64,000 nt of DNA, from the NCBI GenBank assembly GCA_951406725.2, contig OX597821.1, positions 48,298,001 to 48,362,000 of the forward strand, in the 5' to 3' direction. Position 1 is the stretch's first letter. Every line of letters begins with the position of its first letter. The notes beneath the pieces are model-generated. The model had not been told where the DNA came from. It made no database searches and was given only the letters and a program-made list of their open reading frames with translations. This document shows positions 1,818 through 60,149 of the stretch, one piece after another. This DNA is from Octopus vulgaris. Its lineage: Eukaryota. Position numbers and translations under genes: made by a program.

Positions 1818-3019
1818 TATGTATGTATGTATGTATATATATATCTTGCCACCATCTCCCACCTCTCTCTTTCTTTTCTCTTGCTCTTACCTCTGCTGGG
1901 GTAACCATGTTTCTCCTTTACAGTAGTACATCTGTTTCTGTCTTCTTTCTTGTTAACTCTTTCTCCCTCTCTCTTCCTCTCTATTTGGCCAGATAACCAT
2001 CTACCTCCTCTACAGGAAGACACCTCTTTCTGCCTCTCTATCTCAGTCACTATCCATCATCACCTCCTCCAATATCCCCTCCTCTCACAAAGATTCCTTT
2101 TCCAGCAAAGTTACTTGGTGACTCTGCCAGTGCTGGTGCCACTTAAAAAGCATGCGGTCCACACTGTAGCGTGGTTGGCATTCAGCAATAAAACCCATGT
2201 CAAAACTGACCTCACCTGCACTGGTACCACATAAAAAACACTCAGCCCACTCTGCAGGGTCACTGCAGCCACCAGAAAATATACAAAGCATAGGGACCTC
2301 ACTTGGCCATGCCTGGCTGAGATTTGAAATTAAATCTAAGAATTCTCACTCTCCAAATTCATCTGCTATTTTCTGACCAAGCGAGGAAAATTTCTTTGTC
2401 CTCTCAAAAGGAACATTGATTGATGTATTTCCACTTGACCCACGACCTTGCTGTGTCAGGAAAAGTTCAAATGGACAACAAGCCACCTAAATGGGCATAG
2501 GCTACGCTTTTAAAGGTATATCCATCTTTCTAACTGGAATGGGCCATTATAAATACCAGCGCTCTGCAAGCAGAGAGTGAGAGAAACCAACAGAGAGCAG
2601 GCCGACACATTTCCCCTCTGCACTACTTTAAAGGCATTTCACACTGAATGCAATCCTGCAACAAAACCATCTCAACAGAATGTCATAGAGACAGATATAG
2701 AATTTACCAACAATACAGTTGTCCCATCCATCACTCTCTTACTTTCTCACTCACTTTCGACAACATCACTTGATCTATTTAGTTATGGCTGCTAGAACAA
2801 CAGGGAATAAGTAAGTCCAATGCTATTTACCCTTTTACAAGAAAATATAACTCTTGTTACCTAGTATGCTTTCCCGCTGTTTTTATACATGCCTGACCAT
2901 CATGGTTTGGCTTTAATTATATGTAATGGAGAAATAAATATGTTAACTACAACTTTGGCCACTGTCTTTCTTTCCTTGAGTCATCTTCATCTACCACCCA
3001 GTTACATATATATGGATTC

Positions 3020-3050
<31 letters not shown>

Positions 3051-3109
3051 CATGCATATAATTTAAACAAACTCTTCAAGGTAAGCATTAACATCAATAT
3101 ATATATATA

Positions 3110-3204
3110 TATTTTTCGTTGTTTAAAAAAAGTCCATTTCCTTGTTTGATTTTTATGTTCTTGTCTCTCGTTGTGTTCTACGTTTATTTGTGGTGTCTTG
3201 TACT

Positions 3205-54753: not shown

Positions 54754-54794
<41 letters not shown>

Positions 54795-55117
54795 ATTATA
54801 ATATTAGGGAATAAATCCAAACTTACAGGGAAAAAATGAGATTTAGGATTAAATCCAATTTTATAGTATAAATATATTATATTATATTAAATATAATATT
54901 TAATATTAGTATTAATATTTGATTTGCCTAATAGTGGTTATATATATACAGTTTGTGTATCAAATAGCTAACTTAAGGCGATGGCCTCATGGAGCTAATA
55001 AGCAGACAGCTTTATTCTTATTTTTATAAGAATGCCATATTAGTATGGCGATAACTATTATTTTCCGGGAACGCTGCCGCTGTTCTCTTTTAGAGAGACT
55101 TAGTAATTTTAATATTT

Positions 55118-55165
55118 CTATTATTGAAAACAAGTGGATGTATTCCACCGAAACTAGGTAAATAA
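55118..55165 (+). ncRNA. Second, degenerate hammerhead-like motif with UUGAAAA core
   Basis: UAUUA-UUGAAAA-CAA-GUGGA-UGUAU-UCCAC-C-GAAA-CUAGG-U-A-AAUAA. Stem II is clear but the stem I register is imperfect. Confidence 0.45.
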
Positions 55166-55212
55166 AACCATCGAACAGAGATTGTCGGAAGCGACACCTA
55201 CTGGCTGGCTAC

Positions 55213-55254
55213 GCTGCATTGAAAAGGGGCAATACCCCGAAACGCGTCTGTAGC
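55213..55254 (+). ncRNA. Type I hammerhead ribozyme, U3-A8 compensatory core variant
   Basis: GCUGCA-UUGAAAA-GGGG-CAAUA-CCCC-GAAA-CGCG-U-C-UGUAGC. Stem I is 6 bp and extends via GGCUGGC/GCCGGUC and CUACU/AGUAG. Stem II is 4 G-C pairs, stem III is the palindrome ACGCGU, and the triplet is GUC. Confidence 0.85.
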
Positions 55255-55480
55255 TGCCGGTCAAGTAGTGTGGAGCGACTGACCTCCCTTGTTCGAAGGT
55301 TATATGGATACAGTTTGTGTATCAAATAGCTAACTTAAGGCGATGGCCTCATGGAGCTAATAAGCGGACAGCTTTATTCTTATTTTTATAAGAATGCCAT
55401 ATTAGTATGGCGATAACTATTATTTTCCGGGAACGCTGCCGCTGTTCTCTTTTAGAGAGACTTAGTAATTTTAATATTTC

Positions 55481-55517
<37 letters not shown>

Positions 55518-58019: not shown

Positions 58020-58811
58020 TTAGTTAGTTAGTTAGTTAGTTAGTTAATTTGGCTCAAAAGCAAATAGCAAGGCCATGTAGGGGGACATGGAGTTAAGTAC
58101 AGGGTGGTGTTCATGTAAAGAGTTCAGGCCACTTGAGGTCCAGGGAGGCTTTGAACAAAGCGGTCGTCGGCATCTTTACCATCTCGTCTGGCAGCTTGTT
58201 CCACGGATCCGCAACCCGGACGGAGAAAGCTCCTCTCCTTCGATTGAGATGAAATCGTTGCAGGTAGAGCTTTTCGGAATGACCCCGCAGCTGACACTCT
58301 GGAGCAGGAGTGAAGAACAGCTCTTTCGTGAGGTTACACTTTCCGCTTATGATGTTGTGGGTGAGAATGAGATCACCACCGCGGCGGCGTTTTTCAAGAG
58401 AATAAAGGTCGAGCGTCCTCAGCCTTTCTTCGTAGGACAAATTTTTGAGACCATGAACCATGCGGGTAGCCAGCTTCTGGACTCTTTCGAGATGCTGTAT
58501 GTCTTTGAGGAGATAAGGAGAAGAGGCTTGAATCCCATACTCCAATATGGGTCTCACCAGCGTGACATAGAGTGGTAGGAATATGGCTGCTGTGAGCATT
58601 CCGAATGACCGTCGAATCAAGAACAGAATTCCGCGTGCTTTGTTGGCAGCATGGATGCACTGGGCCGAAGGTGAAAAGGAGGAAACCACCAAGATACCCA
58701 GGTCCTTTACCTGATCGGTCCTCTCCAGCAGCAGACGACCCGGCTCGAAATCAAGTTGAGTTGCAGGAGTAGAGCCGACAGGCAGATGACAGCACTTTGA
58801 CACGTTCAGAC
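58020..58811 (-). mobile_element. CR1-like LINE 3' fragment with an uninterrupted reading frame and (TAAC)n tail
   Basis: ORF 58111-58845: LNVSKCCHL..VKDLGILV..AANKARGIL..LYVTLVRPILEYG..LERVQKLATR..RRRGGDLI. Confidence 0.92.
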
Positions 58812-60149
58812 ACAATAATGTTAGGCCAAACATTAACATTAACACGTTCCATATACTGGTGATTATAGATTTTATTGCTCCCCATCAGCCATATTGTGAG
58901 AAGCAGTAATAGAAATATCAGCTGAGTTAGGTTGATCAGATTCATATCACTAATTCACATCATATCACAGGGATTTGCAACTAACAGACATGTTTATTGG
59001 TGATTTTCTGTCAGATTTTTTACCCATTAAATGATCTTAATTATTATGATACCTAATGTTCTCTCGACATAAATTCCGACTACAGTTTTATCCTGTAGAG
59101 AATTCCCTGCTTTATGCCCATTACAAGTAATAAGAAATCACAATTGTATGTTATTATTATGGCAACAATTTTTAATGGAAAATGAAATTTGACAAGGTTA
59201 AAAGTGCAGTTTCTGAAGTATATTAATTTCTCTTGCTTTGGCACAAGGCCTCTATTCTATGATATATTCTCTTTTATAAAATTAAAACTAGCAATACCAA
59301 CATCAATAACCATGACAAGAACATATTTACTGCAAAACTTGAATATCTAAGAAATGTAATTATTTACTTGAGTGTTTAGTCTCTTTCCATTCTTATTATC
59401 ATTATTAATTACTCTTTACATTATTGTGCTACATATCCTGTGCTATCATCTTTACTCTTCACTGTCTTCCAGCTGAGATTTTGAGTATTGATACATCATT
59501 AGATGACACCCTCAACTGATTTTTCCATGAGTCAATTATCACAGGGTTCTCAGATAGTGTCCTAGATGGTGAGTTCCAACAAGCTTTCGGCTATTTTGAT
59601 GGTCAATCAGAAAAGGTAACTATAGAATTACTCATTCATCACTTTCTACATTCAGCTAACATTTGATAATAATTACAAAGCATGTGTAGATTCTATTACC
59701 TTCTATTGATAGAGTGTTGGCATCAATACTTCATGGTTATTAATTACATCTATTTATGTTCTGAGTTCAAATACAGTTCACACAAATTTGCCTTTCATCA
59801 TTACCTTATTGATAAAATAAAGTACCAATCAAGTTTTGTGGAGTAGCATAATTAATAAGAATGATTTAATTTATTCTCAAAAGAGAGACTTCAAAAATAA
59901 GAACTAGTGTCAATTTGCTCAACTAAACCCTTCAGGTGGTACCCTAGCATGGCTGCAGTTCAGTTACTGAAGCAAGTGAAAGAATATAGAATACAGTGTT
60001 TGTAATTGTTATGACACGGAGTACATGTTAGGTGCAAGAATAGTATTACCCAAATAAATATTTAGATATGGTTATCTAGAATAACCTTTCACAGAATATG
60101 TTCACACAGAACGCATTCCACGCTACTCCACATGTAGTTACGATATTAA

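Follow-up and report, generated by a model that had tools for sequence, protein, structure and literature searches.

A U3-A8 hammerhead repeat of the octopus genome that fits the non-LTR retrozyme type and is the target of a LINE

Hammerhead repeats and target-specific LINEs

The closest described counterparts of the octopus repeat are the non-LTR retrozymes of metazoans, non-coding tandem units that carry a type I hammerhead (PMC7229834; 10.64898/2026.07.22.740005). In the accessible parts of these two reports they are of low GC content, are predicted to form a stable circle and are presumed to be mobilised by Penelope elements, a Penelope-type mobiliser having already been proposed for retrozymes; the mussel repeats measure 350-390 bp (PMC7229834). 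The hammerheads of coral and mussel retrozymes have been reported to be efficient in cleavage. As for the catalytic core, natural covariation of positions 3 and 8 to U3-A8 has been reported, with in vitro activity cited (Perreault 2011, PMC3088659), and about 1,300 U3-A8 motifs have been described in Schistosoma Penelope elements, along with variants in the pLTRs of Cercyon (Cervera and de la Pena 2014, PMC4209133), as far as the available text of both papers goes. The U3-A8 core is therefore a known variant, as the initial annotation of this DNA had recognised, and is not new in itself. Satellite 2 of the newt (Coats 1994, as cited in PMC2220036) is a tandem repeat that carries a hammerhead and has an snRNA-type promoter, the short stem III of which has been tied to dimer cleavage (PMC6765202). 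Among LINEs, target specificity in the Tx1 clade is exemplified by Tx1L in Tx1D, Keno in U2 snRNA and Tx1-Mar in Mariner-N4, and the choice of target by AP-endonuclease LINEs is usually ascribed to the sequence preference of the endonuclease (PMC4494074).

Set beside the available descriptions of metazoan retrozymes, the octopus family has in common with them the type I hammerhead, a non-coding tandem unit of similar size (362 nt), the low GC content, the stable predicted circle and the presumed Penelope mobilisation. It differs from them, as described there, in that its core is normally U3-A8, in a PSE-like promoter motif, in fixed twin arm ends and in hosting a site-specific LINE, and it is known here from DNA alone. 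The 3-8 covariation is the same as in the published U3-A8 hammerheads, but the octopus motif is an extended canonical retrozyme ribozyme, in a genome that also holds C3-G8 sisters and a U3-G8 subfamily. With newt satellite 2, as presented in the citing papers, the octopus unit shares the organization as a hammerhead tandem repeat, whereas its copies are dispersed two-arm insertions and its promoter is proposed from the position of motifs only. The octopus LINE, in turn, shares with the target-specific Tx1 LINEs cited above a zinc knuckle in ORF1, an ORF2 with AP endonuclease, reverse transcriptase and zf-RVT, a fixed target in repeated sequence and tandem arrays, but the targets of its lineage have no common primary sequence and are alike in their position at predicted transcription starts. 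On these sequence features, the element fits the non-LTR retrozyme type. The unit of repetition, the footprint of insertion, the motif resembling a promoter and the target of the LINE are additions to the initial annotation.

The U3-A8 hammerhead and its family

The window, i.e. the whole 64-kb stretch of DNA that was analysed, contains a single match to a hammerhead descriptor that accepts any Watson-Crick pair between positions 3 and 8, and 0 matches were obtained in each of five shuffles of local composition. The match is a type I hammerhead with an extended stem I on the forward strand (55198-55269). Its core, UUGAAAA (55219-55225), with U3 at 55219 and A8 at 55224, is the norm of the family; it is preceded by the proximal strand of stem I (GCUGCA, 55213-55218, pairing with UGUAGC, 55249-55254) and followed by stem II (GGGG/CCCC at 55226-55238, with the loop CAAUA), by GAA (55239-55241) and by the palindromic stem III ACGCGU (55242-55247). 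The GUC triplet places C17 at 55248, and the cut is predicted, from its position in the motif, between 55248 and 55249. The strand of the hammerhead folds at −31.4 kcal/mol (z −3.94; 0 of 200 shuffles equal), and it displays the three-way junction, the conserved core and the Watson-Crick 3-8 pair of the type I hammerhead. With sequence, descriptor scan and fold in agreement, and with covariation across copies, the motif is, as first annotated and as judged from sequence, a genuine type I hammerhead with a U3-A8 core, for which cleavage is predicted.

Every stem had been described as intact. This holds for stems I and II, for which the pairing probability is 0.94-1.0 in the motif, in the circular unit and in the linear transcript, but not for stem III, which is not formed in the monomer: C15.2-G16.2 would close a 2-nt loop and A15.1-U16.1 has a pairing probability of 0.0. 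Pairing of stem III is predicted only between two ribozymes, the self-duplex of the ACGCGU palindrome between molecules having a predicted energy of −7.5 kcal/mol. From folding, cleavage that depends on a dimer through the palindromic stem III appears plausible, and, since the locus carries a single whole hammerhead, the dimer could form only in trans. The initial annotation had also likened the motif to the minimal hammerheads of Penelope elements, with their short stem I, long bulged stem II and little or no stem III; this comparison had to be abandoned by taking into account the internal loop in the long stem I, the 4-bp stem II with no bulge, and the non-coding 362-nt tandem unit. No match to the Rfam hammerhead models was obtained in the interval 55100-55350 with E values of up to 10, as would be expected from the variant core and the very short stem III, in line with the earlier statement that standard searches of the CUGANGA type miss the family. 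Censuses of hammerheads based on CUGANGA or on Rfam would thus overlook the commonest family of this shape in the genome.

The core cannot be called rare, as it had been, given that a looser U3-A8 pattern yielded 2,588 matches genome-wide (control, 105) versus 753 once C3-G8 replaced U3-A8 in it (control, 47). With a core pattern specific for the family 2,084 matches were found in the genome and 0 in the control. The consensus of the family has the UUGAAAA-type core that the annotation had made decisive: U3-A8 is present in 99 of the first 100 listed of the 2,084, the remaining one being C3-A8, with 0 C3-G8. The copy number, by counting core copies, is about 2,000-2,100, and a genome search with the unit returned 1,367 candidates, 40 out of 40 scored copies being 100% identical over 175 nt. 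Position 7 is occupied by any of the four bases, positions 3 and 8 are constant across the family, and the core is retained in subfamilies that diverge down to about 80% identity. For the analysis of covariation 23 rows were hand-picked out of 45 distinct variants, with omission of 22 truncated or single-mutant variants. Changes on both sides were found in 4 of the 17 stem pairs (23 cells, a number reached in 0 of 500 shuffles), all in stems I and II, which bears out the covariation across copies foreseen in the initial annotation, with the proviso that these counts exceed the number of independent events because the aligned copies are related. Paired cells amount to 94.9%, versus 25-48% in slid controls. 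Of the 23 rows, 14 have ACGCGU as stem III, 8 have ACAUGU and one has a non-palindromic sequence; ACAUGU identifies an older subfamily that is likewise palindromic.

Homology to the family outside the core was found for two sister families, B (z 11.3) and C (z 4.8-6.8), the cores of which are mostly C3-G8, so that the double change is genuine in the evolutionary sense. The argument for selection that had been drawn from it therefore stands at the level of the family, but not from the single copy on which it had been built. A U3-G8 core is found in four family C loci and is possibly a wobble intermediate between C3-G8 and U3-A8. The natural series C3-G8, U3-G8 and U3-A8 in one genome offers a test of how a catalytic pair changes. 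Other variants were noted along the way. A family B subfamily (L192, L194 and L197) has a U4C core, CCGAUGA, with a longer, near-palindromic stem III; the family C subfamily with the U3-G8 wobble (L198, L201, L203 and L271) has an 8-nt palindromic stem III; and hammerhead-like matches with a G3-C8 core and a palindromic AAUAUU stem III, one near position 2752 of L114 and another at one other locus, may be a third core type.

The unit, its insertion and its mobilisation

The hammerhead lies in a retrozyme arm on the forward strand (54936-55486) made of 1.5 units of 362 nt, one partial (54936-55124) and one whole (55125-55486), as revealed by a direct repeat of 189 nt, 98% identical, with a spacing of 362. 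The left arm of the insertion is formed by the 3' terminus of another AT-rich repeat family, on the reverse strand (54792-54935; 205 candidates, with (AT)n ends), and the insertion as a whole lies between (AT)n tracts. Copies of the family are found in (AT)n, frequently with two arms placed back to back, and comparison of two-arm loci identified two fixed arm ends: the first, at unit positions 290-303 (55414-55427, forward strand), is used by other copies, and the second, at about unit position 362 (55482-55486, forward strand), is the one used by the window copy, after which (AT)n follows. One arm per fixed end is present in 35 of 44 two-arm loci; both arms share the same end in two, and seven include another end. 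The mixed-family arms of the window reflect the use of two templates in one insertion or else the nesting of one insertion in another. The other family (54792-54935, and also L114-L132) is abundant and AT-rich, with Penelope-like inverted arms and (AT)n ends, and one of its loci, L124, contains a fragment of a short ORF in which there is an IPIP motif, as in Penelope-like N-termini.

Inverted 5' copies and a (TA)n bias are hallmarks of Penelope elements, and purified Penelope protein has been found to cut both strands at ATT, with reverse transcription beginning at two internal sites. The octopus insertions present the same pattern, with partial tandems, an inverted 5' copy, a (TA)n target and internal starts, and by this analogy a Penelope-type enzyme is inferred to mobilise the family. 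Each tandem non-coding unit falls in the 150-450 bp range and contains one type I hammerhead, and the copies are dispersed, recently mobile and devoid of coding capacity, as in retrozymes. The fold of the circular unit is stable (predicted, −122 kcal/mol). The arms cross the cleavage site, and the RNA that was copied must therefore have been either uncut or religated. Assembled contigs of four runs guessed to be RNA span most of the unit, with ends, strand and cleavage not readable there. Two frames are recorded as separate observations: a 397-aa frame at 1983-3173 (forward strand) of L012, near a retrozyme copy and resembling a reverse transcriptase by eye, could be a Penelope fragment, and a 257-aa frame of the window (58114-58884, reverse strand) looks, again by eye, like the C-terminal portion of the reverse transcriptase of a LINE.

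The locus is, in our judgement, very probably a copy of a non-LTR retrozyme, namely a 362-nt non-coding unit that would have its own snRNA-type promoter, would cut itself after C55248 and would be pasted into (AT)n by a Penelope-type process. Transcription would begin near 55187, the multimers would be cut to 362-nt monomers, which may circularise, stem III would pair between two ribozymes, and the Penelope reverse transcriptase would prime from both cut strands, with two internal sites. An unlikely alternative would have the unit be the pLTR of an autonomous Penelope element, so that the copies would be truncated insertions and not an independent retrozyme. It would explain why the insertion footprint is the same as that of Penelope, and it is in keeping with the relation of frog retrozymes to pLTRs stated in the accessible part of a 2026 preprint and with the U3-A8 cores reported in Schistosoma pLTRs (in the available text of PMC4209133). 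However, the ribozyme is canonical rather than minimal, pure arrays of at least five units occur, and a search of the screened loci and of the intervals between spaced hammerheads found no Penelope ORF joined to the unit and no autonomous Penelope partner, with reverse transcriptase and GIY-YIG ORF, setting aside the frame of L012 described above. The least credible reading takes the hammerhead for a passenger with weak or no activity, its U3-A8 pair having drifted to fixation and the family having spread without cleavage. Retention of the core over subfamilies about 80% identical, compensation in the stems, retention of the stem III palindrome and the reported activity of U3-A8 ribozymes (in the accessible portion of PMC3088659) all speak against it, even by taking into account that the arms cross the cleavage site uncut, that stem III is unstable in the folded monomer, that Penelope hammerheads are reported to be poor cleavers in vitro and that CpG decay could have led from G8 to A when position 7 was C.

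A LINE at the predicted transcription start

Within the whole unit, positions 55187-55203 (forward strand) are the empty 17-bp target of an L1/Tx1-type LINE, and the first base of the target coincides with the predicted transcription start. In other copies the unit is interrupted by a 5.36-kb LINE, with the equivalent of 55187-55203 duplicated on both sides, so that the whole hammerhead is preserved 3' of the LINE. The LINE encodes a CCHC ORF1 and an ORF2 with AP endonuclease, reverse transcriptase and zf-RVT (Pfam), the latter being uninterrupted, as one open frame of 1,134-1,140 aa, in 9 of the 17 copies inspected; among relatives of solved structure the best match is human L1 ORF2p (E 5e-66), the nearest protein with a name belongs to an octopod (63%), in keeping with the cephalopod genomes to which the initial annotation had pointed, and 0 relatives were confirmed in metagenomes. 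Target specificity with site duplication is as in Tx1 elements, a label given provisionally, on anatomy. Among 30 3' ends fetched, of 42 matches, the 20 with at least 98% identity are all followed by the target, as are 0 of the 10 older ones, and the target precedes the 5' end of the intact young LINE in 16 of 16 cases. From its sequence, the LINE is judged to be active. No paper reporting a hammerhead repeat as the target of a LINE was found in a literature search that covered few subscription papers, and Repbase may already contain the families.

The LINE would be a parasite of the repeat that nicks the unit at the start site and duplicates its first 17 nt, by which it would gain the promoter lying in front of the insertion, and the hammerhead behind it could trim the LINE transcript 62 nt past its 3' end. 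The opposite view, that the LINE is not site-specific and entered a unit once, the composites being then spread by the Penelope machinery, is quite improbable. Independent targeting of the unit site is shown by L105, in which a 5'-truncated LINE of the youngest type lies in an older variant of the unit with a local duplication, by L102, where a 69-bp LINE tail is found at the same site of the unit, and by the LINE-duplication-LINE arrays of L110-L112 (G000:C2:73.04-73.07 Mb), where at least five head-to-tail LINE copies, spaced by the 17-bp target or by one unit, lie in one retrozyme insertion. Relatives of the LINE are moreover found at U1 and TATA targets, which are not retrozymes. L105 and the arrays contradict the spreading of composites as the sole cause of the distribution, to which it may nevertheless contribute. 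The young LINE copies are mostly of full length and within ordinary two-arm insertions, and the age of the LINE follows the subfamily of the flanks. In L106 a truncated LINE stops exactly at the arm junction, without duplication, which suggests that composites can also be moved by the Penelope machinery. Hitchhiking of this kind may supplement targeting, but is no substitute for it.

Upstream of the target, a TATA-like sequence, TAAATAAAA (55159-55167, forward strand), precedes it by 28 nt, where its position would agree with such a function, and a PSE-like ACAAGTG (55130-55136, forward strand) by 57 nt. The latter is a weak match to the ATCAGTG of U1, U2 and U5 genes: it is the top of 345 positions but scores only 2.8 bits, two bases off ATCAGTG, in a window where about 0.5% of positions reach 3 bits or more, and it aligns with the ATCAGT of sister family B. 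ATCAGT(G/C), with a background rate of 0.1%, begins 57-60 nt before +1 in the genes measured (four U1 and one U2) and in 11 of 12 U5 genes, and 58-59 nt before the LINE site in four of four LINE-bearing family B loci and in four of four further family C loci. In two LINE-free copies of family B the motif is at −53, and the spacing is thus not fixed. The Pol II snRNA genes (L208-L227, L248-L259 and L236-L240) share ATCAGTG at about −58. The U6 genes of the genome have a different element, an octamer with TATA, and ATCAGTG at the expected distance was found in 0 of 20 U6 loci, so that by this motif the promoter of the unit is not of the U6 type.

The LINE relatives extend the range of targets. 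Among the closest older ones, a complete U1 gene follows the LINE at one 3' end, and two 5' ends bear the initial 17 nt of U1. A family search retrieved 20 U1, 20 U6 and 12 U5 loci, and in 0 of them does a LINE directly precede the snRNA. More distant relatives (82-85%) lie directly in front of the family B and family C hammerheads. At least 48 distinct LINE 3' ends were counted by hand among the first 100 of 130 matches, of which 18 are in family A, 15 are family C-like, 10 are in class D and 5 elsewhere. The class D targets (L260-L269) are repeated sequences with no Rfam match and no clear ORF, in which TATAAA is found at −27 to −30 in six of six sites of three sequence types (background, 1.4%), and ATCAGTG at −57 to −59 in none of the six assessable sites. 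A restriction of the LINE to snRNA-type promoters, which had been considered, is refuted by these values, and the feature common to the targets becomes the predicted transcription start. In a tree of 31 LINE copies family A is nested within the U1-linked ones and class D is beside the family C group, with seven changes of label, the direction of the target switches depending on the root, which was set at the midpoint.

Taken as a set, the sequences suggest that the LINE lineage targets transcription starts. A wider scheme is put forward tentatively, as one that may or may not hold: the lineage would choose its targets by position and not by sequence, at the Pol II starts of three retrozyme families, of U1 snRNA and of TATA-box repeats, probably while tethered to the PIC; it would gain a promoter along with the first 17 nt, and would switch quickly, from retrozyme to U1 to family A and from retrozyme to TATA repeat, with the hammerhead defining the 3' end in retrozymes. 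If so, the fixed distance to promoter elements in otherwise unrelated sequences would provide a testable path for target switching of LINEs, and the LINE site would indicate where transcription of animal retrozymes likely begins, a position still largely unmapped. Among the minor observations, L107 (G000:C15:21.15 Mb) contains a LINE with a 17-nt leader derived from U1, which lies outside a U1 gene and between two U2 genes, and older LINE 3' junctions often start with ATAC, as does U1 at +1, a hint that a read-through tail may do the priming.
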